DNA of 64,000 nucleotides from Hyphomicrobiales bacterium (GTDB lineage: Bacteria; Pseudomonadota; Alphaproteobacteria; Rhizobiales; NORP267): assembly GCA_021775875.1 (NCBI GenBank), contig JAJFHA010000011.1, positions 10,178 through 74,177 of the forward strand, given 5' to 3'. The notes under the pieces were generated by a model. That model was not told where the DNA came from, made no database searches, and saw only the letters and a program-made list of their open reading frames with translations. The stretch's first letter is position 1; each line of letters opens with the position of its first letter. Both the position numbers and the translations under genes were made by a program. Below are positions 1,408 to 17,307 of the stretch, one piece after another.

Positions 1408-4083
1408 GTGTCAGCACCGTATTATATTCCCGAAATGGATGTCCCGCTGCCGCCGGCAAATGCGGAAATTGTCTCTACGGCCTGCGATTATTGTATCGTT
1501 GCATGCGGTTACAAGGTCTATCGTTGGCCTGTGGCAGGCAATTTAAACGGCGGTCCCGAGGCGGATAATAACGCTTTTGGCGAGGATTTCCCAGTCAATC
1601 CCCTTGGCCCTTGGGTTGCGCCCAACCAGCACAATATTGTGTTGCACAATAGCGAACCGCATCACGTTGTGATCATCCCGGACAAGGACACTCAGTCGGT
1701 TAATCTCAACGGAGATTCCAGCCTGCGTGGTGGCTGTATTGCCCAGAAATGCTACAATCCCCAAACCCCGACGCGCGATCGGTTGAGATCGCCTCTGATG
1801 CGGATCTACGGCATTCTTCAGCCAGTTCCATGGGATTTTGCGCTCGATGTAGCGGCGGAAATTGCTTCCTACGTGATCGAGAAGCACGGAGCCAGTTCGT
1901 ACGGCGTGAAAACCTTTTCCTATCAGTATATTGAGAACACTTACGCGATAACGAAGTACGCGCTCAGACACATCGGCACACCGAATTTTACCTTCCACGA
2001 CACGCCGTCTGATGTATCGTCGACGCCAGGTTTCCGGGATGCCGGTTTCGATAACTTTGCCGCATCCTACGAAGACTGGCGGGATGCTGAGACCTTGCTT
2101 ATCTGCGGCACCGACCCCTACGAGACCAAAACCATCCTGTGGACCCAATGGATTATGCCGGCCATTCAGGGCGGTCAGAAAACCATTCTGATGGTCCCAA
2201 GACGCACCGCAGGCGTAGCTTACGCGGAACAAAATGGCGGGATGTGGATCGATGTAACGCCTGGAACCGACCTTCTCGTTCTGAATGCCATCGCGCGTGT
2301 CATCGTGGAGAACGATTGGCAGGATAAGGAATGGATTGAAAACTGGGTGAACAATAAATGGGGATCCAGTTCCGGTTTCGGCCAGGGTACGCGGAATACC
2401 CCGTGGCAATGGCGCACCACCTGGGGCATGTTCCAGACCGACGGGTTTGAAGACTGGCGCAATTGGCTGCTGGCGCAGGACGAATTTACCGTTGAGAACG
2501 CTGCTGCAGTCTCGGGCGTGGATCCTGAAAAAATACGCACCGCTGCCGAGTGGATGGCCAAGCCAAAGGACGATGGCAGCCGTGTAAAAACCTCCGTCAT
2601 GATCGAAAAAGGACTGTATTGGTCAAACAATACAGGCACCACGCAATCCGTATCGGCGCTGGGTATTATTGTCGGTGCTGGCGGACGTCCGGGCCAGATG
2701 ATCAGCCGCGCTGGCGGCCATCAGCGTGGCGGCGTGCGCGGTGGCGGGTATCCACGAAATCTGTCGCCGATGAAATTACCCGGACGAAGGCGCCGGGCGC
2801 TGGATACCGATACCTGGCTCTATGCAGGTCATACCCGGATGGCGCACGTCATTGGAACGACCTGGATTCAGGCCATGTGCGGCTCCGAGCAGCTTAGCGT
2901 GGCATTTGAAAATCTGACTGTCGCCAATCCTCACCAGATACGGTCATACGACAAGGAAGACATCGTTGCGACCCTGAAAAAGCGCGCCGATAGCGGTGGA
3001 ATGGTGTTGATCAATCAGGATATCTATCTTGTGGACCCGATCGGCAATCGGTACGCAGATATAGTCTTTCCTGCGGCCACGTGGGGCGAAGAAACCTTCA
3101 TGCGCGCCAACGGTGAGCGGCGTTTGCGGCTCTATCCCAAATTTTACGACGCACCGGGTGAAGCTAAACCGGATTGGTGGATCATTGCGGAATTGTCAAA
3201 GCGTATGGGCTTTGACGGGTTCGATTGGGAAAACTCCAACGATGTGGCCGAAGAGGCTTCGCGCTTCTCCAGAGGCAGTCGCAAGGACTTCAACATGATC
3301 AAGGTTGCCGCCCACCGTGAAGGCAAAACCTTGCACGAAAAGTTGGGCGAGTTCGGTACTGACGGTATCCAGGGACCGGTGTTCATGCTGGATGATGGCA
3401 GTCTGGAAGGGACCGTACGGCTGCACGACACAACGCGCGAATTACCAGCCGAGGGACCGGCCGGCGGCAACATGTTCAACAAGAAATTGACCCACTTCAA
3501 CAGCCAGACGGGACGTTGCAACATTCAGAAGTCGCCCTGGTCGTTATTCTCGGACTATTGGGAGTGGCTGCAGCCCAAGGGTGATGAATTGTGGTGCACG
3601 TCCGGGCGGACCAACGAGCGTTGGCAGTCCGGTTTCGATGACCGCCGCAGACCTTATATCATGCAGCGTTGGCCCGAAAACTACGTTGAAATTCACCCCG
3701 ACGATGCCACCGAACGCGGCATTGAAAGCGGCGATATGGTCATGGCTTATTCCGACCGCGTGCCGAGTCTCAGGGAAACCACCATTGGCGTTGAGGCGTC
3801 GGACTATTCGTTCGCAGGCCAAATGGCGAATGGCAATGTGGAATTGTCCCGCGCCGCAGTTACCGGAGTAGCCATGGTGACGCGCCACATCAAAAAAGGC
3901 GTGATCTATATGGATTTCCTGCATCCGCAGCAACCGGCCAACGCCCTCCAGGGACGTATCGTTGACTGGATCAGTGGAAATTATAACTACAAAATGGGTG
4001 TCGCAAGCGTGCGCAAAATTGGCGTGTCGCCATACAAGGATAATTTGCGTTCGATGTCATTCGCACCCCGCGACATTATTTAG
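1408..4083 (+). CDS. Molybdopterin (DMSO-reductase superfamily) catalytic subunit with AioA/IdrA fold
   Basis: A GTG start follows AGGAGG (1394-1399). The N-terminus LPPANAEIVSTACDYCIVACGYKVYRWP matches the AioA-type C-x2-C-x3-C [3Fe-4S] motif region. Further blocks IIPDK, SSLRGG and AGGHQRGG line up by eye with AioA. It has no signal peptide of its own, consistent with hitch-hiking export on the TAT-Rieske partner. Confidence 0.9.
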   Translation: MSAPYYIPEMDVPLPPANAEIVSTACDYCIVACGYKVYRWPVAGNLNGGPEADNNAFGEDFPVNPLGPWVAPNQHNIVLHNSEPHHVVIIPDKDTQSVNLNGDSSLRGGCIAQKCYNPQTPTRDRLRSPLMRIYGILQPVPWDFALDVAAEIASYVIEKHGASSYGVKTFSYQYIENTYAITKYALRHIGTPNFTFHDTPSDVSSTPGFRDAGFDNFAASYEDWRDAETLLICGTDPYETKTILWTQWIMPAIQGGQKTILMVPRRTAGVAYAEQNGGMWIDVTPGTDLLVLNAIARVIVENDWQDKEWIENWVNNKWGSSSGFGQGTRNTPWQWRTTWGMFQTDGFEDWRNWLLAQDEFTVENAAAVSGVDPEKIRTAAEWMAKPKDDGSRVKTSVMIEKGLYWSNNTGTTQSVSALGIIVGAGGRPGQMISRAGGHQRGGVRGGGYPRNLSPMKLPGRRRRALDTDTWLYAGHTRMAHVIGTTWIQAMCGSEQLSVAFENLTVANPHQIRSYDKEDIVATLKKRADSGGMVLINQDIYLVDPIGNRYADIVFPAATWGEETFMRANGERRLRLYPKFYDAPGEAKPDWWIIAELSKRMGFDGFDWENSNDVAEEASRFSRGSRKDFNMIKVAAHREGKTLHEKLGEFGTDGIQGPVFMLDDGSLEGTVRLHDTTRELPAEGPAGGNMFNKKLTHFNSQTGRCNIQKSPWSLFSDYWEWLQPKGDELWCTSGRTNERWQSGFDDRRRPYIMQRWPENYVEIHPDDATERGIESGDMVMAYSDRVPSLRETTIGVEASDYSFAGQMANGNVELSRAAVTGVAMVTRHIKKGVIYMDFLHPQQPANALQGRIVDWISGNYNYKMGVASVRKIGVSPYKDNLRSMSFAPRDII

Positions 4084-4158
4084 GGCGCAATAAATTCGAT
4101 GCCGAATAACGGACGGGAATCGACAATGGGGAAGATATTGAAACTGTGAGTATTCGAA

Positions 4159-6471
4159 ATGCCTGTTCCTAATACCGGTCTGTCATCAAAAAACACAGGC
4201 CCGGCTGCCAAAGCGGGCATTGTTGAGGTATGCTCAAACCTGAGTGAAGTTTTGCAGAACGGGGTGGATGTACACCGATGTTTTGCTGCCAAGGCTCTTG
4301 GAGAAATCGCAGAACCGCAGTCAGTCGATAGTCTGGTCCAGGCCTTGCTGGATGAAGACGAAGATGTGCGTACCGATGTTGCGAACGCTTTGGCGCGCAT
4401 CGGCGATCCCGGATCAGCCGGTCAACTGATCGAGAACTTGCTGGGTGATCCCTGCTGCGCCGTGAAACTGGCCGCGATTGATGCTCTGGTCGGCATGAAA
4501 CATGAAGCGGTAATCCCATGGCTGCGCCGTCTGGTTCATTGCCGCGATGAAGAAATATCTTGGGATGAAACCAGCTATTATATGGACGGTTGGGACGACT
4601 GGGCAGATATCCAGGTCAAATGCGTGGAAGCCCTGGGGGTATTGCACGTCGTAGAGGCCGTTGCGGACATCACGTCGGTTATAGACGATGAAGAAGGCCA
4701 GGATCTTACTGAAGTTGGCTTCAAGGCACTGGCTAATCTGGGTGCCTTTGGCGCGGCCGCCCTTAAAAAATATTTCGATACGGGTGACAATCGTCAACGC
4801 AGGCGGGCTATCGTGCATCTTGCCGCAATGGAGGGTGACGGGGCCGATGCAACCCTCTCGCGGGCTTTGGCGGACCCATCGAGTGACGTCAGATTGGCTG
4901 CTGTAAAATCATTGGCTGGAAAAAATCCGGCCGACAATCGACTGGCAGCTTTGTTCCAGGATTGCTCTCCCGAGGTCGGCGCAGCGGTCGTGAGCTTGTG
5001 CGGCCGCTACCACTTAACGGAGATAACTGCCATCGTCATGGATGAGACCGCTCTTAACCGCACGGCGGTATTCGAGTTGTTGGCACGTGAACCGGGGCTT
5101 GTTTTAGATGAAGACTGCGTTGAAAGCCTGCGCAGCGCAGCCAAATGTGCCGATAGAGAACAGGCCGGCGCGGCAATCAGAGCATATGCCCAAATCGCAC
5201 CCGAACAAGCCATCAATGAAATCGTTGAATTGTTGGGAGATGCGGCACATGTGGTGGAGGTGCGTTTTGCCTCACTGAAGGCATTGGCGAAATTGCCCGT
5301 GACGGAGAAAAACATCCGTGTGCTGGCGAACGTTTTAAGTGACGATAATCGCCAGCTTCGCCTCGAGGCCATGACAGTATTGGCCAATAAAGCAGCGTCG
5401 GAAAACTGGCCGAATTTGGCTGGCAAATTTCTGCTGGAAGCCTTGAACGGGGCCTTTGTTCCCGAGCCGGAAGACGGACGCGTCGCAGGTCCGGAAATAG
5501 CATCCAATACCGAGCTTGATGAGGAATTGGAGCAAGCGGTCGACGAAGCTGGCCAATCATCCGCGGCAAGTTCAGAATCCCCCGCATCCCCCTCAATCTT
5601 GTTGGAACCGGACGATAGCGCGGAAAATGGTGATGCATCACAAACCAACGGCGACGCTGCCGAATTCCCTACCTCAACGCTCGAAGCAATTCTTGGCGCA
5701 AATTCGCCGGGTCTTGAAGCTGCCAATTCTGCCGAAGATGATGTGACTTTGACAGAAGAGGATCTGGAATTCCTCAGTCTGTCAAAACGGGGGCCGAAAA
5801 AACGCCGGGTTTCGGTTTTGCCTGACGTGCCATTGCATCAGGATATTCCGCGATTTGCGGCAAGGGTTTTAGGCGATATTGCCCACGAAGACGTCGCACA
5901 CGCTTTGTCAAAAAAGCTATTTAGCGACGATGCGGATCTAACCAGGGCCGCGGCCGATTCCCTGGTTCAAATCGGTGAGAAACTGGGCGGACTGCCCAAC
6001 CAGGTGGTGCAAAATCTTCTGGCGGCTTCTTCCGCGGTCGATCTCGAATGCCGACGATCCATCGTCAGGGCGTTGGGTCTCTCGGGCAGCGGCGACGTGG
6101 TGATGAAGTTGGTTTCATGTTTGCATGACGAGAGCGGTTTTATTCGGGCAGAGGCCATTCGCGCGCTTACCCAATTGGGCGAAGCAGGACAGGGCATGAC
6201 GGCGATGCTTCAGGATTCGGATTCGAATGTTCGACTGGCCGCTGCTCAGGCGATCGCTGATCTGGATGAAGACGCCGCTCTGGAAAAGCTGGTGGATTTT
6301 GCATTCGCATTCAACGGCCATCATCGCAGGGCTGTCGGAAAAATGCTGCGTAAAATGGATGTTGAAACTGCCAATGCCCGTTTCATTCAGGTTCTTGGGC
6401 ATCCCGACAGAAAAAATGAATGGCAGGTCGTGATCGAGTCCCTGGAAGAACTCAATCGCGCCCGCATGTGA
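4159..6471 (+). CDS. HEAT-repeat (PBS-lyase/EZ-HEAT-like) protein with a central acidic/Ser-rich linker
   Basis: Many repeats of the form DxxVRxxAAxALGxIGD occur (e.g. DEDEDVRTDVANALARIGDP, DSDSNVRLAAAQAIADLDED). An approximately 105-aa low-complexity acidic segment (about 5461-5780) is followed by the basic patch KRGPKKRR. There is no signal peptide or TM helix. Confidence 0.7.
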   Translation: MPVPNTGLSSKNTGPAAKAGIVEVCSNLSEVLQNGVDVHRCFAAKALGEIAEPQSVDSLVQALLDEDEDVRTDVANALARIGDPGSAGQLIENLLGDPCCAVKLAAIDALVGMKHEAVIPWLRRLVHCRDEEISWDETSYYMDGWDDWADIQVKCVEALGVLHVVEAVADITSVIDDEEGQDLTEVGFKALANLGAFGAAALKKYFDTGDNRQRRRAIVHLAAMEGDGADATLSRALADPSSDVRLAAVKSLAGKNPADNRLAALFQDCSPEVGAAVVSLCGRYHLTEITAIVMDETALNRTAVFELLAREPGLVLDEDCVESLRSAAKCADREQAGAAIRAYAQIAPEQAINEIVELLGDAAHVVEVRFASLKALAKLPVTEKNIRVLANVLSDDNRQLRLEAMTVLANKAASENWPNLAGKFLLEALNGAFVPEPEDGRVAGPEIASNTELDEELEQAVDEAGQSSAASSESPASPSILLEPDDSAENGDASQTNGDAAEFPTSTLEAILGANSPGLEAANSAEDDVTLTEEDLEFLSLSKRGPKKRRVSVLPDVPLHQDIPRFAARVLGDIAHEDVAHALSKKLFSDDADLTRAAADSLVQIGEKLGGLPNQVVQNLLAASSAVDLECRRSIVRALGLSGSGDVVMKLVSCLHDESGFIRAEAIRALTQLGEAGQGMTAMLQDSDSNVRLAAAQAIADLDEDAALEKLVDFAFAFNGHHRRAVGKMLRKMDVETANARFIQVLGHPDRKNEWQVVIESLEELNRARM

Positions 6472-6534
6472 AAAATGCTGCGGTACAACGTCGCCGCGTG
6501 ATTTGGTGCAAATTTGGAGATGGAGGATTTGGTG

Positions 6535-7269
6535 ATGAAGAATTTACTCAGAAGTTTTATTGTTGGTGCGGCGGTTCTGGCACTCGCTCCCGGCGCGCTG
6601 GCAAAGAATTATGAACCCGGTGATGTAGCCGATGGCGGCACGATTACAGGGCAGGTTTTGGCCGGTAATGCAGGAGCAGAAGTCCAATCTTATCCAATCA
6701 CCAAGAACACGGAAGTTTGCGGCGAGGGTAACCGCGACGTTGAATGGGTGCGGGTCAATGACGGCGCGTTGCTCGATACGGTTGTCTATCTAGTAGAAGT
6801 GGAATCCGGAAAGGCTTTCACAGAAGAATCCCAGACCCTGTCTCTCGACCAGGACGGCTGCCGCTTCGCGCCTTATATGAGCGCAATGGCCAATAGCGGC
6901 GATTTGCATGTTACCAATTCCGACCAGGCGCTCCACAACATTCATACCTATGAACTGATCGGCAGCGCCCGGCGGACAGTCATCAACGTAAGCCAACCCG
7001 AGGCGGGTACCGAGTTCACCAAGACAATCAGACTGCGCAGGGGCAATGCAATGAAAGTCGAATGCGATGCCCATGATTTTATGCACGCATGGGTGTTTGT
7101 CGCCAAAAATCCATATTACGCAATCGTCGACGAGAATGGCCAGTTCAGTCTGGATAATGTTCCTCCAGGTACCTACGAAATCAGGTCATGGAATGGCCGT
7201 CTTGGAGAACAGGAAGCGACCGTGGAAGTTGGTGCGAACGGCTCGGTTGAAGTAAATTTTTCCTACTAG
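6535..7269 (+). CDS. Secreted cupredoxin-like protein with a C-terminal carboxypeptidase-regulatory-like beta-sandwich
   Basis: GGAGGA lies 7 nt upstream of the ATG. It has the signal peptide MKNLLRSFIVGAAVLALAPGALA. The ligand pattern HNIH...C-D-A-H-D-F-M (C-x2-H-x2-M, the spacing seen in amicyanin) is present. The tail IVDENGQFSLDNVPPGTYEIRSWNGRLG is typical of CarboxypepD_reg-like domains. Confidence 0.6.
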   Translation: MKNLLRSFIVGAAVLALAPGALAKNYEPGDVADGGTITGQVLAGNAGAEVQSYPITKNTEVCGEGNRDVEWVRVNDGALLDTVVYLVEVESGKAFTEESQTLSLDQDGCRFAPYMSAMANSGDLHVTNSDQALHNIHTYELIGSARRTVINVSQPEAGTEFTKTIRLRRGNAMKVECDAHDFMHAWVFVAKNPYYAIVDENGQFSLDNVPPGTYEIRSWNGRLGEQEATVEVGANGSVEVNFSY

Positions 7270-7449
7270 AAACGTGTGAACGGTAATGAGGTTTCGATAC
7301 CGAATTGGAGAATTACGACGGATCGGCGTGTTTGACGCTTTCGTCTTTGCGGGAGGGCTGGTGAATGTAATCGTGGTTGCGATTTTGCTTACCTATTGGC
7401 TGCTCTATGGATGAACAGCGACGACAGATTGACGGGTTGGGGGATAGCC

Positions 7450-9135
7450 ATGTCTGGGAGTTTTCTGCAGCAGTCAGCACTCGTGATGCCGGAAGGTGAT
7501 GCTGAGCGTTTTGATACTGCTCCGGTTTCGCTAAAGCGGATATTGGTAGCGTTGGATGCTTCCGTCTACGCTAACCATGCCTTGGTTGAGGCGACAAAAT
7601 TAGCCGGATCTGCCAATGGTGTAGTTACCGGAATCCACGCTTATGCGGCAAAACTCCACGACAATCGATTTCGTCAGATGGAAGGCGGCCTGCCTGAAAA
7701 ATATCGCCAGGAAGATGAAATGGAGCGCCAACGCGGCGTCCATGATGACCTCATCACACGTGGCCTAGGCATCATCAGCGATAGCTACCACGACGAAGCC
7801 GAGAAGGTCTGCGCTGCGGCCGGAATTCCCTACCAGCGGCTCAATCCTGAAGGAAAAAACTATCGCCGTATCGTCGAGGCGACTGAGACCGGCAATTTCG
7901 ATGTTCTGGCGCTGGGTGCCCAGGGACTTGGAGTCGTGTCGGGCAGCATTCTTGGCACAGTATGCCAGCGCGTCGTGCGTCGTTCGCCCATTGATGTGCT
8001 GGTCATCAGGGACGCTGATCGGACCATTGGTGACGGGCCCCTGGTCGTGGCCCTGGACGGTTCACAACGCTCCTTTGGCGTGCTGATGACCGCGCTCGAT
8101 CTTGCCCGCCGTGTTGATGCAGAAGTGCACGCGGTTGCGGCATACGACCCGTATTTTCACTATGTTGCCTTTGACAAGATCGCCGACACCTTGAGCGAGG
8201 AAGTCAGCAATGAGTTTCGTTTTCAGGAGCAGGAACAACTGCACGAGGAAATTATCGACGCAGGTATCGCTAAAATTTACCAGTCTCATCTTGAAATTGC
8301 AGAGACAATCGCGAAGGAGGCGGGTGCCAACCTTGCTTGCAAGCTTCTCGACGGCAAACCTTATCACGCGATCGCGCAATATGTTGAGCAGGTTGGTGCC
8401 AGCTTGCTCCTGATGGGAAAGACTGGAATTCATGCCGATGCCGATTTGGATATAGGCGGGAATACGGAAGTACTTTTGAGAACAGCCCCGTGCCATGTCT
8501 GGATTGGCAACGCGACATATACACCGAGAAGTGATCTGGTGGCCCAGGAAACCATCGTCTGGACCGAAGAAGCTGAAGAAATAATGACAAGGGTGCCTGA
8601 GACCGCGCTTGGCATGGTGCGTATGGCGGTTTTGCGGATCGCCCAGGAGAGCGGCCACACAGTCATCACTTCGGCCCTGATCGAGGAAGCAACCAACCGG
8701 TTTTGTCCTGATCGGGGTGGTGTAATGCCAGGTGCTGAAGAACCAGTGAAATGGACGGATGCGGCCACGGATATGGTCAAGAATCTTGGCGATCCCGGCC
8801 TCGCAAAATCGGTGCGTCTGAGCGCTGAAAAACGGGCACGCCGCGAGAAATCAGATGCTGTCGAATCCCACCACGTCACGCCGTTCATCGAGCATTCGGA
8901 CGCTGCCAATCTGAAATGGAACGCGGCGGCGCTGGCGCGGTTGGCGCAGGTCCCGCAGATGGTGCGCGGCTCTCTCCGGGTGCGCATTGAAGCCCATGCC
9001 AACGAAGCGGAATTGATTGAAATTGATGCCGATACGGTCGAGATTATGATCAAGGAAGCCCGCCAGGTCATGAATGAGACGATGCGGACAGGAGGGCACC
9101 CGGATAATGGTGACGCGAGCGATGGCAATGCCTGA
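7450..9135 (+). CDS. Tandem universal-stress-protein (UspA) domains fused to two or three PCP_red-like (BchB/ChlB C-terminal-like) repeats
   Basis: GGGGGA lies 5 nt before the ATG at 7450; the longest ORF starts at TTG 7396. There are two USP-like halves (ILVALDAS...VLVIRD and LVVALDGS...HVWIG). The C-terminal repeats are VWTEEAEEIMTRVPETALGMVRMAVLRIAQESGHTVIT and LKWNAAALARLAQVPQMVRGSLRVRIEAHANEAEL. Confidence 0.7.
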   Translation: MSGSFLQQSALVMPEGDAERFDTAPVSLKRILVALDASVYANHALVEATKLAGSANGVVTGIHAYAAKLHDNRFRQMEGGLPEKYRQEDEMERQRGVHDDLITRGLGIISDSYHDEAEKVCAAAGIPYQRLNPEGKNYRRIVEATETGNFDVLALGAQGLGVVSGSILGTVCQRVVRRSPIDVLVIRDADRTIGDGPLVVALDGSQRSFGVLMTALDLARRVDAEVHAVAAYDPYFHYVAFDKIADTLSEEVSNEFRFQEQEQLHEEIIDAGIAKIYQSHLEIAETIAKEAGANLACKLLDGKPYHAIAQYVEQVGASLLLMGKTGIHADADLDIGGNTEVLLRTAPCHVWIGNATYTPRSDLVAQETIVWTEEAEEIMTRVPETALGMVRMAVLRIAQESGHTVITSALIEEATNRFCPDRGGVMPGAEEPVKWTDAATDMVKNLGDPGLAKSVRLSAEKRARREKSDAVESHHVTPFIEHSDAANLKWNAAALARLAQVPQMVRGSLRVRIEAHANEAELIEIDADTVEIMIKEARQVMNETMRTGGHPDNGDASDGNA

Positions 9136-10438
9136 CCCTGTCGAAACACCGTTCCTCGTCGCCCTCAACCTGACGCGCCGCTGCAATCTGAAATGTGCCC
9201 ATTGCTATCTTGATGCAGGCATGAGGCGAAACGGCGAACCGGGAGAACTCGAAACTCAGGAAGTTTTCAATCTACTCGACGATATTGCCGCTTTGAGCGA
9301 CGAAACCATGGTTGTGGTGACTGGCGGGGAGCCGTTGTTACGGCTGGATATTCTTGAAATTTGCAGCCACGCATCCGGTCTCGGGCTGATGGTGGTGATG
9401 GGCACCAACGGCACCCTTCTCGACAAGAAACGCGTTCAGGAATTGCAAAATGCAGGGGTCAGGGCCGTCGGGATAAGCCTTGATTCATTGAGGCCCGAAT
9501 ACCATGACGATTTTCGCGGTGTAAAAGATGCGTGGGCGCAAACCATGAGCGGGATCGACAATTGCCGCGAAGCTGGTCTGATGTTCCAGGTTCATTTCTC
9601 GGTCACCGACGAAAATGCCCATGAGATCGACGACATTATCGATTTCGTACGCTCGGTCGGCGGGTCCGTTCTCAATTTTTTCTTTCTGGTCTGCACGGGA
9701 CGCGGCGAAACCTTTTCCAAAATATCGAGCAATGTTTATGAAGCTTCGCTCAGGCGGATCGCAGAAGCCGCCGCCGCGGAAACCGAGCTTCTTATCCGCG
9801 CCCGATGCGCCCCGCATTTTAAGCGCATGGCGCTCGAAATGCAGTCCCGCCTGCAAGTGACCCAGCTTGATGGCTACGAGGCCGGGGGGTGCCTTGCTGG
9901 CACGCATTATTGCCGGGTTACGCCCCACGGGAGAATTACACCATGCCCGTATATGGAAATCTCAGCGGGTTCTATCCGTGAGCAGGATTTTGCCACCGTC
10001 TGGCGCGACGCCCCGTTATTCGAAAAATTCCGCAATCCGAAGTTGGAGGGACGTTGCGGGGAATGCGAATTTTCAAAATTGTGCGGAGGGTGCAGGGCGC
10101 GGCCGTATGCGCGCGACGGCAATCTGATGGGTGAGGATTTTTTGTGCGAGTATCAGCCAGCGGGCGGTGCCGTCATTGAACCATATCTTCCGAAAGCTGG
10201 GGTTGTACCCTGGAGCCCGGAGGCCGAGGAGCGCCTTCAACGCGTCCCGTCCTTCGTGCGCCGTTTTGTCCGTCTGCGCGCGGAAACCCACGTTCATGAG
10301 GTAGGTGAAACCACCGTCACAGTGGAGCATTTGAAGACCCTGGCAAAGCGCCGGTTTGGCGAGGCCGGACCGCCCCTGGGAGGGTTCCCGGACATTATTC
10401 GGAACGTGGACACAACCAATATAAAGCGAAACCACTAA
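9107..10438 (+). CDS. Radical SAM/SPASM enzyme of the AhbC/AhbD/NirJ tetrapyrrole-modifying type with a C-terminal PCP_red domain
   Basis: The C-x3-C-x2-C motif CNLKCAHC lies at 9182-9205. Family-like blocks include VVTGGEPLL, FFFLVCTGRG and ARCAPHF. A Cys-rich SPASM region is present (CGECEFSKLCGGCRARPY). The tail is VPWSPEAEERLQRVPSFVRRFVRLRAETHVHEVGETTVTVEHL. The start is ambiguous (9074, 9107, 9122 or 9128) and overlaps the end of the upstream gene. Confidence 0.85.
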   Translation: MVTRAMAMPDPVETPFLVALNLTRRCNLKCAHCYLDAGMRRNGEPGELETQEVFNLLDDIAALSDETMVVVTGGEPLLRLDILEICSHASGLGLMVVMGTNGTLLDKKRVQELQNAGVRAVGISLDSLRPEYHDDFRGVKDAWAQTMSGIDNCREAGLMFQVHFSVTDENAHEIDDIIDFVRSVGGSVLNFFFLVCTGRGETFSKISSNVYEASLRRIAEAAAAETELLIRARCAPHFKRMALEMQSRLQVTQLDGYEAGGCLAGTHYCRVTPHGRITPCPYMEISAGSIREQDFATVWRDAPLFEKFRNPKLEGRCGECEFSKLCGGCRARPYARDGNLMGEDFLCEYQPAGGAVIEPYLPKAGVVPWSPEAEERLQRVPSFVRRFVRLRAETHVHEVGETTVTVEHLKTLAKRRFGEAGPPLGGFPDIIRNVDTTNIKRNH

Positions 10439-11853
10439 TGTACGATGCTGCGGTCATAGGCGGTGGCATATCGGGCCTCGCTGCGGCCTACGAGCTGCAG
10501 AAATCAGGATACAAGGTTGTCGTCATCGAGCGCCAGGTCAGGGTAGGAGGCAAAGCCCATACGGGGAATCTGAATGGATTTTTGATGGAATATGGCGCAA
10601 GTTCGATCAATGGAGCGTCAATCAGAGCTTCTGCATTCTCAACCGAACTTGGCCTTGACGGCGAGCGTTGCCAATTGGGACCAGACGTTCGCAAGCGGTA
10701 TCTTATCAAGAACGGTCGTTTGAACGGGATTGCCAAACATCCGTTTGGTTTTTTGACGTCCAGCTATCTCTCCCTGCCATCGCGTCTCAGGCTTCTGACA
10801 GAAATTTTCCGGTCTGCCGGACCAGACAACGAAGAGACGGTGGCCGAATTCTGCACCCGCCGCTTTGGCAGGGAATTTTCTGCGCGTATCATCGACCCGC
10901 TGATTGGTGGGTTATTTGCCGCCCGCGCGACCGAACTGTCATTGTCGGCGGTTTTCCCTAAATTGCAGTCATTTGAAAAGCAATACGGATCGGTCACGAT
11001 GGGTGCGATCCGGCGGCGGATGGAGGGCAACAAGATGCCCGCCCGCCTGCTCTATTCATGGCAGCGCGGGATCGGCGCATTGCCGAACGCTCTCGCAGGG
11101 CAACTTGGTTCAAACATCAAAACCGGAATCACCGTCCGGGGTATCGATGCGTTGCGTCAAGGATATCGCCTCAAGTTTGCTGGTGGTGGGTCGCTGGATG
11201 CGCGTTCGGTCATTGTCGCGACGCAGCCTCACGTTACAGCTGACCTCCTGCAATCGCTCGATCTGGAAGCAGCAGAAGCAGCCGCCGAAATTCACGCGCC
11301 CCCAATCACCGTCATCTTTATGGGGTTCCGCCGTGAGGATGTTGATCATCCCCTCGACGGCATTGGGTCCCTGTCACCGGAGAGCGAGAAAAGGACGCTG
11401 TCTGGGATATTGTTCCCAACGACCATGTTTCCCGGACGGGCGCCCGAAGGCTGTGTTTCGCTGTCGGGCTATATTGCCGGCGCCCGGTCTCCGGATTTGG
11501 TGAAATTGCCGCTTGAAGACCAGGCGGCTTTGGCACGAGAAGAATTTCGCCATTTGCTGGGCGTCAGGGGAGAACCCCTTGTCACGCGCGTACACCATTG
11601 GCATCGCGGATTGCCCCAGGCGCGCATCGGCCACGGGAGATTGATATCGAAATTCTCCGAACTTGAATCCCGGCGACCAGGAATGTTTGTTACAGGAAAT
11701 TATTTCTCAAGTCCCTCGATCGCAAATTGTGTTGAAACGGCCAGAGAGACGGTGGCCCGTGTTGCGCAATTCCTGGGAGCACAGGAAAATACCAGCAGAG
11801 AAAACGAGACGGGCGGCGTGAGGTTCACTGCTTCGGGGACCGGGCAAAAATGA
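10438..11853 (+). CDS. FAD-dependent protoporphyrinogen/coproporphyrinogen oxidase-like flavoprotein (HemY/CgoX family)
   Basis: The N-terminal dinucleotide fold is AAVIGGGISGLAAAYEL...ERQVRVGGK. The overall length and the C-terminal block GMFVTGNYFSSPSIANCVETA are typical of the PPOX family. The start overlaps the radical SAM stop (TAATG). Confidence 0.8.
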   Translation: MYDAAVIGGGISGLAAAYELQKSGYKVVVIERQVRVGGKAHTGNLNGFLMEYGASSINGASIRASAFSTELGLDGERCQLGPDVRKRYLIKNGRLNGIAKHPFGFLTSSYLSLPSRLRLLTEIFRSAGPDNEETVAEFCTRRFGREFSARIIDPLIGGLFAARATELSLSAVFPKLQSFEKQYGSVTMGAIRRRMEGNKMPARLLYSWQRGIGALPNALAGQLGSNIKTGITVRGIDALRQGYRLKFAGGGSLDARSVIVATQPHVTADLLQSLDLEAAEAAAEIHAPPITVIFMGFRREDVDHPLDGIGSLSPESEKRTLSGILFPTTMFPGRAPEGCVSLSGYIAGARSPDLVKLPLEDQAALAREEFRHLLGVRGEPLVTRVHHWHRGLPQARIGHGRLISKFSELESRRPGMFVTGNYFSSPSIANCVETARETVARVAQFLGAQENTSRENETGGVRFTASGTGQK

Positions 11854-12197
11854 ACCTTGCGCAAGACCCAGACAGTGTCAGATCCAGATCGACGGGCAAA
11901 GGATTCCTGGGGCTTTTCGTAATGTTTGCGGTTACTGCACTGATCCTGAGATTTGTTTTCAGCAGTGCCGAATATTACGGGGATCAAGTTGGACTGGCGA
12001 GATATTGTGGTGATCCGGTTGCAACAATTGACAGGGTCAAAATGATACTTGCCTCGGATATTCCGAGCGACGGTAATGAGCGACGGCCCTACATTGTAGC
12101 TGCAAAATTGCTGTATCTGGTCCCCCAACTGCACGATGAGACCATAGAAGCCTATTCGGTGAGGCTCCTCGAAGAAATCGAGGAAAGATGCCGGTAG
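11850..12197 (+). CDS. Hypothetical N-terminally membrane-anchored protein
   Basis: It overlaps the PPOX-like gene by ATGA. It has one TM helix (GFLGLFVMFAVTALILRFVF). I recognise no family. Confidence 0.5.
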   Translation: MNLAQDPDSVRSRSTGKGFLGLFVMFAVTALILRFVFSSAEYYGDQVGLARYCGDPVATIDRVKMILASDIPSDGNERRPYIVAAKLLYLVPQLHDETIEAYSVRLLEEIEERCR

Positions 12198-12218
12198 GCC
12201 CGAATTGCCACTTCCAAA

Positions 12219-14501
12219 TTACTTCAAATCTTGGCTGGACTGGTAAATGCGTCTTTGACGACGTGCCGCAAACAGGAACAATAGACCGGCCAAAGCTCCG
12301 CCCAATCCAGAGTAACCATAGACCCTCAATGGCTGTTCATCCTGCTGCAATAACAGCCAATACCACGACGTCATCGAGTGCCGGCTGCCTTGTTGCCCGG
12401 CCCAGCCATCCCAGTTGGCAAAAGCAACGGGGATGTACCGCCCGACTTCGAATTGCAGATCTCGGCCATCTTCGGTTTCCAAAGGCCGCGTGAATACAAT
12501 TCGCCACATTCCGTTTTCCCAAGCGCCGCTGCCCGCAAGGTCGCCAATCTCAGGGCGATGGGTCGGCGGCTCATCCGGGCCAGTTGCGTCCATAAGAGCT
12601 ACCTGCTGGGGGTTCCCTGCCTCTTGGTTGGGTGCTCGCCAATACCACATGTTTACCCCGTGCCCGGGATCGCCATGGCGGAACCAGGGCCTCTCGCTGG
12701 TGACTGGAATTTCGATTGGGAACTGGATCGCGGCAGCATCCGGCGTTGGCGTGAACTGGTCGTCGCGATACGGAACCTCTTCGGTTGCTCCTGGAACCGA
12801 GAAACTGCGGTCATCGATATCAAGACGCAACGCGATATCGTCCACATTGTATAGCGCACGCACCGTTACAGTATCGTTGAGTGAATAATAAAGTCGCTCG
12901 CCCTTGATGACGTTGGGGGCAAAAGGAAATGTGATGGCCGGTGCCTCGTCCCATCGCGGGTCGTTCGGGTCATCGGGCAACGCCCCGTCCACACGCAACG
13001 CGCGGATAACCGTCTCCCCGATTGTTACCGGGTTCGAATTGTCGCGCAGAGTCATTGCGTAATTGGCAATGTCCCAACGCTCGTCTTCCGACATTGTCGT
13101 CGTATGCTCCGGCATCGGCGTGCCACGGATGCCGCCACTGATCCGTTGGAAAATGTCCTCGGCATCGAGTGTGGCGCGCCAGGTTTCCGGCCTTGTAAGA
13201 TTGCGCGGCCATATCCTGTCCTGCCAGTCATCTCTAAGCACTTTGCCCGAAGTTACATTGCCGCGCCCTTCGGTCCCGTGGCATTGTACACACGCCTTTA
13301 CAAACAGTTCAGCTCCCCGGCTTAAGGAATCAGTATTGCTTTCCACGCGTACGCCCATTTCCATCGGCAGGGTCCCGAGATCTTCTTCGGCTTCCCCGTC
13401 CCAATAACCGAATTCACGAATGAGCGTTACCAACCCGTCGATTTGTGGCGCGGTCAGCACTTCACCCCACGCCGGCATGGATGTGCCCGGCAGGCCGTCG
13501 CGGATTGTGGCGGCGATATCTGTATCAAACGGGAATTCGGAATCTGCGGCACTGGTTTTGTATTTGAAAACCCCAAGCGTAAAATCCCGTGGCCTGGGAT
13601 AAAGAAATTCCGCAGCCGGTCCGTCGCCTTCACCTTCCGAACCATGGCACTGAGCGCAGCGTGTGTCATAGACCTGGCGTATGGGGTCCTGGTCCGAGGT
13701 CGTAACAGGTACTTCCGTCTGCCCAGACGCACCTTGTTCCTCAAGCTCCCACGATCTCGGTTCATATCCGGTATAATCATAGAGGAAAGAAATGATCTTC
13801 CAGATTTCCTCTTCACTCAGAATCTCGTGCCAGACCGGCATGGCGGATGCCCACGGCGCACCTTCTCGCGGCAGACCCGGGGCACCGGTGGCGATGCGCC
13901 AGAACAGATAAGATTCCTGAAGTTGGGCGATCGTTCCCACATCCTGAAAATTTGCCGGGCGTGGATTGAAGGCTGCGCCAAGATGTCCTTGCCCGTCGAG
14001 ATTGTCGCCATGGCAAAAGACACAATTCTCGTAATACAGGCTCCGGCCTTCCGCGATCATTTCAATGTAAGCATCGCTCCCGCCCGGCATCGTTTCGCGC
14101 AGGGGATTTTGCAGCGTCGCCAGGTCATAAGTGTTTCCATATATCCTAAGCGACGACGGTGGTGCCGGATGTACGGTCCTCAACTCAATCGGCGCATCGC
14201 TCCCAGGCTTCACCCACAGGTAGGTGAGGCCACTGGCCAGAGCGACAATTCCCAAAAATGAGCATAAACGAAGAATCCTGAAACCGGGCGCACCAAGAAC
14301 GAGGTGAAACGGATTGAGGAACCTCGCAAATGTTTCATCGTCAAACGACACGACCAGCAATATCCCGACCACGCAAATTACCATGAATTGAATCAGGAGC
14401 GTGACCGGTACGGGAGGTGAAATCACATAGGCAAAGAGCACGTATAATCCGGCGACCACCAGGCAGGATACAAAGAGGGGATGCGTTATGAAGCGTTTCA
14501 T
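12219..14501 (-). CDS. Membrane-anchored tri-haem cytochrome c fused to an EB_dh-like (ethylbenzene dehydrogenase gamma / DOMON-like haem-binding) domain
   Basis: It has three CxxCH motifs (CVFCHG, CAQCHG, CVQCHG). It has N-terminal TM helices and a C-terminal TM helix (GALAGLLFLFAARR). The C-terminal third (PNDPRWDEAPAITFPF...VRALYNVDDIALRLDIDD...GVNMWYWRA...ANWDGWAGQQGSRHSMTSWYWLLL) resembles EB_dh domains. The start MKRFITHP overlaps the upstream stop by ATGA; the longest ORF runs to 14567. Confidence 0.8.
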   Translation of the reverse strand: MKRFITHPLFVSCLVVAGLYVLFAYVISPPVPVTLLIQFMVICVVGILLVVSFDDETFARFLNPFHLVLGAPGFRILRLCSFLGIVALASGLTYLWVKPGSDAPIELRTVHPAPPSSLRIYGNTYDLATLQNPLRETMPGGSDAYIEMIAEGRSLYYENCVFCHGDNLDGQGHLGAAFNPRPANFQDVGTIAQLQESYLFWRIATGAPGLPREGAPWASAMPVWHEILSEEEIWKIISFLYDYTGYEPRSWELEEQGASGQTEVPVTTSDQDPIRQVYDTRCAQCHGSEGEGDGPAAEFLYPRPRDFTLGVFKYKTSAADSEFPFDTDIAATIRDGLPGTSMPAWGEVLTAPQIDGLVTLIREFGYWDGEAEEDLGTLPMEMGVRVESNTDSLSRGAELFVKACVQCHGTEGRGNVTSGKVLRDDWQDRIWPRNLTRPETWRATLDAEDIFQRISGGIRGTPMPEHTTTMSEDERWDIANYAMTLRDNSNPVTIGETVIRALRVDGALPDDPNDPRWDEAPAITFPFAPNVIKGERLYYSLNDTVTVRALYNVDDIALRLDIDDRSFSVPGATEEVPYRDDQFTPTPDAAAIQFPIEIPVTSERPWFRHGDPGHGVNMWYWRAPNQEAGNPQQVALMDATGPDEPPTHRPEIGDLAGSGAWENGMWRIVFTRPLETEDGRDLQFEVGRYIPVAFANWDGWAGQQGSRHSMTSWYWLLLQQDEQPLRVYGYSGLGGALAGLLFLFAARRQRRIYQSSQDLK

Positions 14502-15352
14502 TGGACGGCCTCGCCGGCTCCAAGCGCGATCAGATAATCGACAACCAGTTCCAGCTCGCTCGCCCACATCTGCTCAGCGTAATCTGGCGGCATGAAGTCG
14601 GCTTCATAGCCATCCGCAATCTCGGCATTGGGGTCAATGATAGCTGCCCTGAGTTGATGGCGCTGCATTTGCTGCACGGTCTCAGCAAGATCGGGGCCGA
14701 TATCGGCTCCCGACCCGAACAGATCATGACACCCGGCACAGCCGAGATTGGCGATGATATCCTCCGCCGAGGTCAAAGGCCACACGTCTTCCGAGGGCGT
14801 CTCCTCAACATTTGCACTCTCGACGGCATCTGCTGCCGACGGCAGCGCAACTGTTACCTCGAAACCTGCCAGATCCTGCAAAAAGCCGATAAGCGCGTCT
14901 GTTTCCGTTGCCGATAAGGAAATTGGCGCAGCATCTACGCGCGGCATCGGGCTTTCAGTATCGTTGGTCCCCTTTTTCCCGAATCCGTCGACAACAAAAG
15001 CGGACGGATCGATCATGGATTCACGTAGATAAATTTCAATTGCAGCCGCACCACTTAACCCTGCAGCGGCCCCTGCATAGCGTTGATCGGCAATGCGCTC
15101 AGGAAGCGTCGCTGCCAGATCCAGTTCGAGTAGATCGGGCGCCCGGCCCAGATTGTTATGGCAAAGCGTGCAGGTGCCCTGGCCTTCGAACAGGCGTCGG
15201 CCCCAGGCAATCTGTCCGGCTACATCTAGGGAACTTTCATCGATCTCCTCGGTTTGCGGCGGATCGGATTGTACCTGGGGCAGAATATTCGCAAATATCG
15301 TAAAGGCGAACATAATCGCCAGGCTGAAAACAGTGATCCGGAGAAGGGTCAT
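14498..15352 (-). CDS. Di-haem c-type cytochrome, N-terminally anchored or secreted
   Basis: It has two CxxCH motifs (CTLCHN, CAGCHD) and a hydrophobic N-terminus (LLRITVFSLAIMFAFTIFANI). It overlaps both neighbouring genes by ATGA. Confidence 0.8.
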   Translation of the reverse strand: MTLLRITVFSLAIMFAFTIFANILPQVQSDPPQTEEIDESSLDVAGQIAWGRRLFEGQGTCTLCHNNLGRAPDLLELDLAATLPERIADQRYAGAAAGLSGAAAIEIYLRESMIDPSAFVVDGFGKKGTNDTESPMPRVDAAPISLSATETDALIGFLQDLAGFEVTVALPSAADAVESANVEETPSEDVWPLTSAEDIIANLGCAGCHDLFGSGADIGPDLAETVQQMQRHQLRAAIIDPNAEIADGYEADFMPPDYAEQMWASELELVVDYLIALGAGEAVQ

Positions 15353-17307
15353 TTGGAAATCTTCCCGCCGGGTTTGGCCTGTTTGATTTCGCCCATCTGA
15401 CTGAGCCAGAACACAAAGACGATAACGCCCATGAAAATGAGGGTGATCATGGTAATGACATTCCCTGCCTGGCCAATGGTCGGAATATAGGCCTCAGGGG
15501 AGGTGTCTTTCATAATCGTATAGACGTGCCAATGGGTGCGTACCGAGGAGCGGATATATCCCATCAATCCCATCAGCCATGTGAAGGCGATCGGCAGGAC
15601 AAACAGCGCGTATTGAGACCGGGTCGACATCCGCCCCCAATGAACTTTGCTCCTTTTTGCCCCGCGGGACATGAACCCGTCGATGATAAGGGCAAAGATA
15701 ATTATGGAAATGGTGGTGGCTACCTGGGGAACGGAGGCTCCAACCTTGTAGACCGTGGGGGTGATGTAGCCGTAAATCCCGGCACCGACGATGTTGAGGA
15801 CACCCACCACATAGAGCGCCACAATTAGCAAATTACCGGTGCGCGCCCACGATACGGTCGGTTCGCGGCTTGAGCGATTGAACAGTTGAAACGAAAGGAA
15901 GGTTGCCACCAGCATCAAATTCACCGCCATATTCTTGGCTGGCATTATCCCGAGCGGTCCAAGAAATCCGTGATTGGTACCGCCCAGAAGGCGGATTTCC
16001 TGGGGTGTTAGAATCAATGTGTGTGGGGTGACCCAAACCAGAAATCCGCCAACGATGACCACCGCAATATATTTTACATAGGGCGCGTAGGTAGCGCCTT
16101 TCCGGGTGCGTCCCAGACCGCACCACAGGTAATAATTTGCTGCCAGAATGATGGTGCCGATCAAAACCGCCTGGATGATGAAAAGCCAGGCCAGAATCCC
16201 GCCCATGGCGGTAATGCCCATCTGCTGGCTATAGGCGTAGATTTCCGCCATCAGCCAATATCCGGCGAACGGCAGGGGTAGAAACCCGCAGACCGCGATA
16301 AAATTCGAGGTGTATCCCATCCAGTCGTAATGTGCCCGCTCGGCCGCATTTTTTGCACTCAGAAAACGGTAAGCGGCATAAGCCCCGACGATGGCTCCCC
16401 CATAAGCGATGTTTGCCAGGAACCGATGCAGGTTGAGCGGGTTCCAGAGGGGATTGCGGGTCGCTTCCCACACCGTCCCGATAACGGCACCAGTCGAGGG
16501 ATCGACACCTGACGGAGACATCATGAAAGTCGCCCATGCGTTGGCAACAAACATCAGCGTTAACCCGACCGCATTCAGCACCAGACCGATGGAAAGATGA
16601 ACCCATTTACGGTTGCCGTACCGAAGAACCCCCCAGGAATAGTAATAGATGTAGAGGAACAGGCTTTCCATCACGAACAAAGCCGCATAAATCAGCGTCT
16701 GTCCGCGAAATACCTGCATGAGATACCCCATCACAACCGGGTAGAACAGGAAAAGTGCGATGGCTAAAGCGCCGCCCGTGAGCGCCGTAAACGAATAGGC
16801 CGCCATGGAAATTTTCATGAATTCATGCGCCATGACATCGTAGCGCGGATCTTTGGTTAGAACGCCCAGCAGCTCGATGATTAAAACGAACAGGGGAACG
16901 GCAAGCACGAAGGCAGCCAGAAACAAATGCATTTGCGCAAAGACCCAAACAAAGGTCCGCCCACCCATGCCCCCCACCCGGGGATAATCACCCGGTGTGG
17001 GAACGGGTGCCGGCAATGCATCGCTGGCAGCGAAGACAAGGTCCGGAATCGCAATGGCGAATAGCAAGGCGAACCCCAAAATCCATATATTTCGGGAAAC
17101 CTCTACCACCAATTTTCTTTCAGGATGTCTTGACCAAACACAATTCCATGAGAAAGAGCTTTGCTCAAATTCAGAACCAGAAGAGGTTGGGTCCCGGGGC
17201 AACGCGCCGGTCAATACAGATTGGCTGGAAGTTGCCGAAAATTCCCGTAACAATCTGTTAGGACTGTGTGCCTTTCGCCTCCTGGAATTGCTTTTCTCCC
17301 AAGTCAT
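15349..17307 (-). CDS. CydA-like (cytochrome bd subunit I superfamily) polytopic membrane haem protein; no cydB partner in the window
   Basis: QMHLFLAAFVLAVPLFVLIIELLGVLTKDPRY aligns by eye with E. coli CydA [32 protein letters not shown]. A second conserved His lies in LNLHRFLANIAYGG. There are many TM helices and no long Q-loop. The first ~65 codons of the ORF look non-protein-like, so the true start may be TTG/GTG at about 17112/17109. Confidence 0.8.
   Translation of the reverse strand: MTWEKSNSRRRKAHSPNRLLREFSATSSQSVLTGALPRDPTSSGSEFEQSSFSWNCVWSRHPERKLVVEVSRNIWILGFALLFAIAIPDLVFAASDALPAPVPTPGDYPRVGGMGGRTFVWVFAQMHLFLAAFVLAVPLFVLIIELLGVLTKDPRYDVMAHEFMKISMAAYSFTALTGGALAIALFLFYPVVMGYLMQVFRGQTLIYAALFVMESLFLYIYYYSWGVLRYGNRKWVHLSIGLVLNAVGLTLMFVANAWATFMMSPSGVDPSTGAVIGTVWEATRNPLWNPLNLHRFLANIAYGGAIVGAYAAYRFLSAKNAAERAHYDWMGYTSNFIAVCGFLPLPFAGYWLMAEIYAYSQQMGITAMGGILAWLFIIQAVLIGTIILAANYYLWCGLGRTRKGATYAPYVKYIAVVIVGGFLVWVTPHTLILTPQEIRLLGGTNHGFLGPLGIMPAKNMAVNLMLVATFLSFQLFNRSSREPTVSWARTGNLLIVALYVVGVLNIVGAGIYGYITPTVYKVGASVPQVATTISIIIFALIIDGFMSRGAKRSKVHWGRMSTRSQYALFVLPIAFTWLMGLMGYIRSSVRTHWHVYTIMKDTSPEAYIPTIGQAGNVITMITLIFMGVIVFVFWLSQMGEIKQAKPGGKISK

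Follow-up and report, generated by a model that had tools for sequence, protein, structure and literature searches.

So far it is only for some Gram-positives that a hybrid late-haem route combining AhbD with a HemY-type oxidase has been discussed; there, AhbD has been accepted as an anaerobic substitute for ChdC that acts after CgoX and CpfC (PMC13564367). Here we describe a gene cassette on a 64,000-nucleotide stretch of DNA from a Hyphomicrobiales bacterium (GenBank assembly GCA_021775875.1, contig JAJFHA010000011.1; the whole stretch is referred to as the window), in which a HemY-type oxidase and a putative AhbD-type decarboxylase of the radical S-adenosylmethionine (SAM) class are likewise encoded together. 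The cassette differs from the Gram-positive pathway in that its host belongs to the Gram-negative Alphaproteobacteria, that CpfC is missing from the cluster, that a protein of two universal stress protein (USP) domains followed by PCP_red repeats (USP-PCP_red) has been added, and that the genes are located in a respiratory island and not in a haem operon. We tentatively propose, with somewhat less than even confidence, that these three genes (the trio) are dedicated to the adjacent haem-rich respiratory complex, for which they would carry out late haem synthesis and hand the haem over.

The trio is an undescribed cassette, and it most likely represents an AhbD/HemY-type late-haem step whose obligatory partner and genomic role are both new. 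Its genes are mentioned neither in the papers on iodate-reductase islands, nor in the cytochrome bd superfamily paper, the Nitrospinota genomes paper or the review of haem biosynthesis (PMC13564367). The respiratory surroundings resemble described systems as well: the bd-like CydA homologue of the window shares with the OR-N/OR-C proteins an N-terminal-only Cyt_bd_oxida_I match, accompanying cytochromes c and alternative electron-donor modules (Murali, Gennis & Hemp 2021), and it is probably of the OR-N type. USP-PCP_red or radical SAM neighbours of the OR-N/OR-C genes are not mentioned in that study. At its left end (1-4083), the window carries an iodate-reductase-like cluster that matches the idrP1P2BA layout of Alphaproteobacteria from oxygen-minimum zones (PMC13455634). 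If our proposal is correct, an AhbD-type radical SAM haem synthase and a HemY-type oxidase would be placed together in Proteobacteria, PCP_red would gain a testable function outside chlorophyll synthesis, and there would be a first concrete handle on haem acquisition by the bd-like (OR-N/OR-C) complexes, which accompany iodate-reductase-like and nitrite-oxidoreductase-like enzymes in bacteria of oxygen-minimum zones. In the tandem-USP and PCP_red fusion, a very conserved, widespread and wholly uncharacterised partner protein has now been identified.

Domain composition of the coupled genes

Four genes on the forward strand are chained by overlapping stop and start codons (Table 1), as had been noticed in a sequence-only reading of this DNA, and all three overlaps have been re-read in the sequence. 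The stop codon of gene 1 (TGA, 9133-9135) sits within gene 2, whose ATG at 9107 creates an overlap of 29 nt, the stop of gene 2 and the start of gene 3 overlap as TAATG at 10436-10440, and the stop of gene 3 overlaps the start of gene 4 as ATGA at 11850-11853. For gene 1, the database copy uses the ATG at 7450, which follows a GGGGGA motif; a TTG further upstream at 7396 is a possible alternative. Every domain claimed in the sequence-only reading has been confirmed by Pfam and NCBIfam profile searches.

The radical SAM enzyme (gene 2) matches Radical_SAM (PF04055, E=4e-29) and SPASM (PF13186, E=1.4e-9, 38.5 bits), and the PCP_red domain that had been suspected on it scores 47.7 bits in Pfam. 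Among the NCBIfam models, end-to-end matches have been obtained with NirJ2 (TIGR04055, 322 bits) and AhbD (TIGR04545, 311 bits, model positions 1-339 of 339). AhbC and NirJ are found far below these two (187 bits for NirJ, against a cut-off of 515). The CxxxCxxC motif (C26, C30 and C33 of the identical database protein P0001) is invariant in 119 homologues, and so are at least seven cysteines of the SPASM region (C262, C280, C317, C320, C326, C329 and C347). An AlphaFold2 (AF2) model (pLDDT 85, pTM 0.86) presents a generic SPASM fold, and both the alignment and the model let the radical SAM core begin at about residue 15, with no RiPP recognition element (RRE; RiPP, ribosomally synthesised and post-translationally modified peptide) or PqqD-like domain in the protein. 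The full-length match, the CxxxCxxC motif, the auxiliary-cluster cysteines of the SPASM domain and the lack of an RRE are thus shared with AhbD/NirJ2, whereas the additional C-terminal PCP_red domain, the constant pairing with a USP-PCP_red protein, the alphaproteobacterial host and the missing AhbABC context set gene 2 apart. No nir genes are present within the annotated 54 kb of the window, and AhbA/B/C genes of the sirohaem branch have been found neither there nor in the alphaproteobacterial loci.

The assignment of gene 3 is clear at the family level. Amino_oxidase (PF01593) is matched with E=2e-62 over positions 1-442 of 443, the NCBIfam model TIGR00562 (proto_IX_ox) reaches 269.6 bits against a cut-off of 97.85, and the N-terminal GxGxxG motif is present. 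All of its seven best solved relatives are protoporphyrinogen oxidases (PPOX), among them those of Myxococcus xanthus (2ivd, 225 bits), tobacco (1sez, 170 bits) and Bacillus subtilis (3i6d, 155 bits), and the protein accordingly groups with neither the amine oxidases nor the carotenoid desaturases. The HemY/CgoX-type oxidase proposed from the sequence is therefore a HemY/PPOX enzyme by the NCBI cut-off, though closer to PgoX than to CgoX, and a sequence rule that separates coproporphyrinogen from protoporphyrinogen oxidases is not given in the literature (PMC10427985). With the PgoX/CgoX enzymes it shares the above-cut-off score, the full-length FAD/amine-oxidase fold and the GxGxxG motif; what distinguishes it from them is its translational coupling to a radical SAM enzyme.

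Gene 1 combines two domain types. Pfam has identified two copies of Usp (E=2.7e-31) as well as PCP_red (70.5 bits, cut-off 32.5), the latter reported as two stretches, while our own hidden Markov model (HMM) and the AF2 model (pLDDT 74, pTM 0.63) agree on three repeats, so that the PCP_red-like repeats foreseen in this protein are real and number three. In the model, a tandem USP body is followed by three similar three-helix units, and the fold resembles the tandem USPs TTHA0350/Rv2623 (Foldseek, 3ab8 and 3cis, E ~1e-10 to 1e-11); the fold search has returned solely generic tandem-USP folds. The ATP motif G156-x2-G159-x9-G169-T170 is present in domain 1 and degenerate in domain 2. Two USP folds and the ATP-binding glycine motif of domain 1 are hence common to gene 1 and TTHA0350, Rv2623 and UspE, from which it differs by helical insertions, the PCP_red repeats, a very high conservation and fixed genomic partners. 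A long helical insertion is found in either USP domain and contains residues that are invariant across phyla (H63, Y65, H70, R73, F74, E78, R95 and H98 in domain 1; H237, Q261 and H265 in domain 2), and these would suit the binding of a tetrapyrrole or a metal. Invariant His/Tyr/Arg motifs specific to the USP-PCP_red family are HxYAAxxHxxRFxQME and DPxFH...QExLH. The mean column identity of the family amounts to 70-74%, with signatures that include HAYAAKLHDxRFRQMEGGLP, AVAAYDPYFHYVAF and GGH at the C-terminus. The idea that four invariant cysteines of gene 1 make up an Fe-S site has been considered and ruled out, as these cysteines are not kept outside Alphaproteobacteria. The source databases label the gene 1 family just 'universal stress protein' and the gene 2 family 'radical SAM protein'.

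The PCP_red domain (PF08369) is otherwise that of BchB/ChlB, a subunit of DPOR, the protochlorophyllide oxidoreductase that operates in the dark. A helical domain of ~45 residues with the motif W..EAE..L..VP.FVR is shared above the Pfam cut-off, but in the proteins described here it comes without the nitrogenase-like body, is repeated one to six times and is fused to USP or radical SAM domains. The match to the BchB models is confined to their last ~55-70 positions and reaches 40 bits against cut-offs of more than 490. Papers on DPOR do not document a role of the C-terminal domain of BchB, and nothing relevant has been found in the literature on PCP_red/PF08369.

Conservation and genomic context of the trio

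The similarity search with the PCP_red families, in which only the 8000 candidates sharing most words have been scored, has yielded at least 5854 matches for the radical SAM and at least 3621 for the USP protein among these candidates, and the top 120 matches of each family have the same architecture at 59-79% identity. A pattern scan with one genome per species has revealed USP-PCP_red relatives in no fewer than 499 genomes, nearly all of them from Alphaproteobacteria that have not been cultured. Of these carriers, the best 80 are all metagenome-assembled genomes (MAGs) and nearly all Alphaproteobacteria (Hyphomicrobiales, Rhodospirillales, Kiloniellales, Thalassospiraceae, Rhodobacteraceae and Sneathiellales), and many of the carrier MAGs originate from oxygen-minimum zones such as Saanich Inlet, the Arabian Sea, the Eastern Tropical North Pacific (ETNP) and the Black Sea.

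In 86 loci mapped by tblastn, the order USP, radical SAM, PPOX is found nearly everywhere, with exceptions that are mostly truncated contigs. The spacing is equally constant: the USP stop lies between -60 and +30 nt from the radical SAM start in 97% of 78 loci, and between the radical SAM stop and the PPOX start the median gap is -1 nt, with values within 30 nt in 99% of 70 loci. Recurrence of order and coupling in ~70-80 other loci is far beyond chance, and the synteny check that had been proposed for the cassette has thus revealed a very strong linkage in independent loci. Conserved genes 3' of PPOX, for example for a ferrochelatase or an exporter, have not been found in the mapped loci.

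The conserved unit is smaller than the four genes initially put forward. Gene 4 encodes one hydrophobic helix without Pfam or NCBIfam match, and homologues have been found just in L001/L007, which represent one genome, and in L072. It has therefore been rejected as a member of the cassette and is regarded as lineage-specific, though coupled in the window.

The trio invariably forms the 3' end of a larger island, and all mapped loci with enough upstream sequence show one of three upstream blocks. Block A, the type of the window, comprises two CCP-like peroxidases, a Rieske protein, an AioA/IdrA-like molybdoenzyme, a HEAT-repeat protein and a secreted protein of 251 aa, and this six-gene set precedes the trio in ~20 loci. 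Block B consists of a bd-like gene, a cytochrome c, a cytochrome c-EB_dh fusion and a 65-aa two-helix membrane protein (s65), and block C of a bd-like gene and a cytochrome c followed by a type II dimethyl sulfoxide (DMSO)-reductase operon that resembles nitrite oxidoreductase (NXR) and is periplasmic (1190-aa alpha subunit, 88-aa protein, beta subunit, NarJ-like chaperone, EB_dh gamma subunit). Block C has been observed in MAGs of Hyphomicrobiales, Xanthobacteraceae and Rhodobacteraceae (loci L003, L006, L030, L032, L036, L039, L045, L058, L069 and L084-L086). What recurs beside the trio is a bd-like CydA homologue, accompanied by cytochromes c and an EB_dh haem-b domain, and the cytochrome c-EB_dh gene co-occurs with the trio in most mapped loci. 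The island opens with these genes, and an iodate-reductase-like module (as in the window) or an NXR-like one is often inserted between them and the trio. In the window this module is found on the opposite strand from the trio (12219-17307); among the other type-A loci, cytochrome c-EB_dh is visible at the 5' edge in L022, L059 and L074, and elsewhere the flank ends first. The link to a neighbouring bd-like haem operon, which had been read from the window, has hence been seen to recur across loci and, as set out below, across phyla.

Beyond Alphaproteobacteria, an exhaustive HMMER search has assembled USP-PCP_red into 233 clusters at 50% identity (E<1e-30), with one to six PCP_red repeats and in some cases rubredoxin-like or PNPOx-like additions. 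Named members belong to KSB1, Calditrichota, Bacteroidota, Chloroflexota, Betaproteobacteria, Thermodesulfobacteriota, Nitrospinota, Planctomycetota and Methanoculleus, and a bd-like CydA adjoins USP-PCP_red in Alphaproteobacteria, Thermodesulfobacteriota, Dehalococcoidales, KSB1 and Methanoculleus. In Thermodesulfobacteriota, USP-PCP_red, a radical SAM-PCP_red protein and a homologue of s65 lie opposite cytochrome c-EB_dh, two cytochromes c and a bd-like gene. Dehalococcoidales combine cupredoxins, a bd-like gene, a cytochrome c, USP-PCP_red, a MrpORP-like ATPase, a free PCP_red protein and a radical SAM-PCP_red protein. Both lineages lack PPOX at these loci, and their radical SAM-PCP_red proteins score 660-670 bits against the radical SAM profile. 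In KSB1, two CydA-cytochrome c fusions and two genes of no known kind precede USP-PCP_red, in Methanoculleus an Ahb-type cluster, whose radical SAM proteins come without PCP_red, is followed by a cupredoxin, a bd-like gene and USP-PCP_red, and in Nitrospinota USP-PCP_red stands alone on one contig. Among 80 metagenome loci of the wider family, the radical SAM gene lies directly 3' of the USP gene in 18 of the 36 with enough downstream sequence, and PPOX has been found in only two of the 80. Because the pair recurs across phyla and PPOX is this rare, the USP-PCP_red and radical SAM-PCP_red pair is the deepest-conserved core and PPOX is essentially an alphaproteobacterial addition; the link to bd-like genes is strong and not universal.

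Two further features of the wider family concern the USP-PCP_red protein itself. Four relatives outside the window (P0253, P0269, P0278 and P0433) carry RUBY_RBDX inserts or an N-terminal PNPOx-like domain, with up to six PCP_red repeats, and such additions suggest, on the level of domain content, a redox or a flavin/haem-binding role. In a Dehalococcoidales locus (L091, 9204-10540) and a metagenome locus (L108, 10848-12319), USP-PCP_red is followed by a Mrp/MrpORP-like Fe-S P-loop ATPase and a free PCP_red protein. By analogy to the ATPase pairing of DPOR, PCP_red may serve as a docking module for an ATP-driven electron donor.

Proposed function and its alternatives

The initial view can be regarded as partly supported: the cassette is related to tetrapyrroles, it is conserved and it is linked to the haem proteins beside it, and it consists of three genes, not four. 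From the domain identities, the gene order, the coupling and the co-location we infer the substrates, the product, the formation of a complex and the role of the USP-PCP_red protein as follows. The HemY-type flavoenzyme would oxidise coproporphyrinogen III to coproporphyrin III, iron would be inserted by an enzyme encoded outside the cassette, and the AhbD-type radical SAM enzyme would turn two propionates of Fe-coproporphyrin into vinyls, using two SAM and the auxiliary SPASM clusters, with protohaem as the product. The nucleotide-binding tandem-USP protein would dock to the radical SAM enzyme via the PCP_red domains that both share, and would hold or pass on the tetrapyrrole via its helical insertions with the invariant His/Tyr/Arg residues. 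A complex of the two proteins is suggested because their genes are tightly spaced and often overlap, and because PCP_red is common to both. The respiratory complex to be served would consist of the bd-like CydA homologue, the c-type cytochromes and the EB_dh haem-b domain, and in the window also of the iodate-reductase-like molybdoenzyme.

Such a scheme would also fit the distribution of PPOX. In organisms with an Ahb pathway, coprohaem would already be there, and the USP and radical SAM pair would suffice. Alphaproteobacteria normally make haem via protoporphyrin and have a protoporphyrin ferrochelatase; because this route leaves no coprohaem for an AhbD-type enzyme, it would follow that they alone add a HemY gene. 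Some hosts also keep an ordinary HemN-type gene, as seen in locus L015 with a HemN-like gene 2.9 kb 3' of the trio, and the trio would for this reason represent an extra, specialised branch.

Several points weigh against this proposal. The radical SAM enzyme stays below the NCBI equivalog cut-off for AhbD (311 against 500 bits, with the 322 bits for NirJ2 also below 500), although the cut-off says little here, because two radical SAM proteins of Methanoculleus that flank NirD/L-like (AhbA/B-type) genes score no higher (304-334 bits). The oxidase is nearer to the Myxococcus PgoX than to the Bacillus CgoX. Radical SAM enzymes are O2-labile, and one of them is paired here with an oxidase of an O2-using type. 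The function of PCP_red is not established; in BchB the domain presumably lies close to the bound pigment. No ferrochelatase is encoded in or near the cassette, with nothing conserved 3' of PPOX. None of the cassette proteins has an obvious export signal, and their location is presumably the cytoplasm, whereas the EB_dh and cytochrome c domains function in the periplasm; an exporter is not encoded in the cassette either. In the wider family, just 8 of the 31 metagenome loci whose upstream sequence extends over at least 5 kb have bd-like or EB_dh genes, and a distant locus on a soil-type contig (L164, 5196-8860) presents another context, in which a nucleotidyltransferase, a UbiE-type methyltransferase and a B12-binding radical SAM protein precede the USP and radical SAM pair and bd-like genes are absent. 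Finally, HemY-type enzymes normally use O2 (PMC10965808), which also makes the 'oxygen-independent' branch considered in the sequence-only reading doubtful.

Among the alternatives, the trio might make a modified, non-b haem or tetrapyrrole for the OR-N/OR-C bd-like proteins, for instance via an anaerobic route to a d-type or an otherwise altered high-spin haem, by radical SAM chemistry other than a double decarboxylation. We consider this unlikely. Hosts have, or presumably have, ordinary routes to haem b (the HemN-like gene near L015, the Ahb pathway expected in Thermodesulfobacteriota) and yet keep the pair by bd-like genes, but the pair is also found without bd-like neighbours, and in Methanoculleus the bd-like gene adjoins a plain Ahb-type cluster with radical SAM proteins devoid of PCP_red, which fits a simple supply of haem b. 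The position of the radical SAM family under the AhbD equivalog cut-off, together with its extra domain, would agree with a different chemistry, but presumably genuine Ahb-cluster enzymes score equally low. Likewise, the cofactor content of the OR-N/OR-C proteins is uncharacterised in the literature, and still the sequence has no feature that would indicate another reaction. A more far-reaching idea, to which we give a similarly low probability, is that the USP-PCP_red and AhbD-like pair is a hitherto unrecognised cofactor-maturation system for the OR-N/OR-C bd-like enzymes. In it, either a non-b haem would be formed by radical SAM chemistry, or the missing step of iron insertion or hand-over would be taken by the tandem-USP/PCP_red protein as an ATP-dependent chaperone or chelatase of tetrapyrroles of a new kind.

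It is quite improbable that the trio forms a protoporphyrin-type branch, in which the radical SAM enzyme would do the job of HemN and convert coproporphyrinogen III to protoporphyrinogen IX, the HemY-type enzyme would proceed to protoporphyrin IX and the host ferrochelatase would finish. The rank of the M. xanthus protoporphyrinogen oxidase above Bacillus CgoX among the relatives of gene 3 (225 versus 155 bits) would be explained by it, and the alphaproteobacterial protoporphyrin ferrochelatase would remove the problem of the missing chelatase; however, the radical SAM family is AhbD-like and not HemN-like, some hosts already own a HemN-like gene, and the radical SAM-PCP_red homologues of Thermodesulfobacteriota and Dehalococcoidales (660-670 bits) occur without PPOX. 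Because Thermodesulfobacteriota should lack coproporphyrinogen, a metallated substrate of the radical SAM enzyme, as assumed in our proposal, is more likely.

A system unrelated to tetrapyrroles, in which the radical SAM/SPASM protein would mature peptides or proteins, with a small neighbouring protein or a respiratory subunit as its target and the flavoprotein and the USP protein as accessories, is very unlikely. The closest solved folds of gene 2 are indeed the RiPP/SPASM maturases SkfB, PqqE and SuiB, but these matches are uninformative because neither by sequence nor by fold has a solved structure of AhbD or NirJ turned up as a match, and in the HMM scores AhbD/NirJ2 are ahead of every peptide maturase (best 137 bits) by more than 170 bits, so that gene 2, which also lacks an RRE, falls outside the peptide-modifying SPASM families. 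A small neighbour is available in s65, directly 5' of the USP gene in 42 loci and with a homologue after the radical SAM gene in L089, but s65 is a two-helix membrane protein that neither the window nor the Idr-like and NXR-like contexts contain, and the PPOX assignment is strong. An incidental adjacency of a general stress or regulatory USP and two housekeeping haem enzymes, for which the database label 'universal stress protein' would speak, is scarcely credible, given the unusual conservation of USP-PCP_red (70-74% mean column identity), its family-specific invariant motifs and its fixed place in a tightly spaced, often overlapping gene chain in ~80 loci from several phyla.

Flanking genes and small open reading frames

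Table 1. Coordinates of the trio, gene 4, the flanking genes of the window and the s65 examples (window positions unless a locus is named)
Feature	Position	Strand	Remarks
CCP_MauG-type (CCP-like) dihaem peroxidase	74-787	+	Window start truncates a second copy (compare L001)
Rieske subunit	799-1395	+	Twin-arginine translocation (TAT) signal
AioA/IdrA-like molybdoenzyme	1408-4083	+	TIGR02693, 409 bits, cut-off 359
HEAT/PBS-lyase-like repeat protein	4159-6471	+	770 aa; weak matches to bilin lyases CpcE, NblB
Secreted protein	6514-7269	+	251 aa; weak CarboxypepD_reg/fn3_3 matches at C-terminus
Gene 1, tandem-USP / 3x PCP_red protein	7450-9135	+	561 aa; exact database match P0121
Gene 1, USP domain 1	~7534-8010	+	
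Gene 1, USP domain 2	~8038-8505	+	
Gene 1, three PCP_red repeats	~8554-9090	+	
Gene 2, AhbD/NirJ2-like radical SAM protein with C-terminal PCP_red	9107-10438	+	443 aa; exact database match P0001
Gene 2, radical SAM core	~9167-9649	+	
Gene 2, SPASM	~9890-10069	+	
Gene 2, PCP_red	~10211-10336	+	
Gene 3, HemY-type porphyrinogen oxidase	10438-11853	+	471 aa; FAD
Gene 4, single-helix protein	11850-12197	+	115 aa; no family match
Tri-haem cytochrome c-EB_dh fusion	12219-14567	-	Pfam Cytochrome_CBB3/Cytochrom_C x3 and EB_dh (haem b, DMSO-reductase type II gamma-like)
c-type cytochrome	14498-15352	-	284 aa; Pfam Cytochrom_C and synteny
bd-like CydA homologue, membrane subunit	15349-17307	-	652 aa; Pfam Cyt_bd_oxida_I over residues 122-371
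s65, locus L004	5114-5311 (L004)		Also in 41 other type-B loci
s65 homologue, locus L089	10440-10649 (L089)		After radical SAM gene; Thermodesulfobacteriota

Outside the genes of Table 1, no other haem genes have been found in the annotated 17.3-54 kb stretch of the window, where all genes are housekeeping. A riboswitch or other RNA element upstream of the trio is not indicated, as positions 1-19000 of the window gave no Rfam match, and scans for promoters and terminators have returned counts no higher than the chance level.

The gap of 180 nt between the gene of the 251-aa secreted protein and the USP gene contains an open reading frame of 42 codons (7286-7414) with one hydrophobic helix; significant similarity to s65 or to anything else compared has not been obtained, and it may not be a gene. 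The s65 protein itself (~65 aa) has two hydrophobic helices with the motif FGVVLIFLG..D.MLSWRGG and is located immediately 5' of the USP gene in the type-B loci; the bd-like complex may have it as a small subunit. It has been rejected as a RiPP precursor, because it is a two-helix membrane protein, is restricted to a single type of context and does not occur in the window.

The 251-aa secreted protein lies directly 5' of the trio in all type-A loci. It had first been described as 'blue-copper-like', a label that is not borne out by any cupredoxin match in Pfam; its segment HNIH...C-x2-H-x2-M could form a type-1 copper-like site. The HEAT-repeat protein has been kept between the molybdoenzyme and the trio in ~18 loci and could act as an assembly or scaffold factor.

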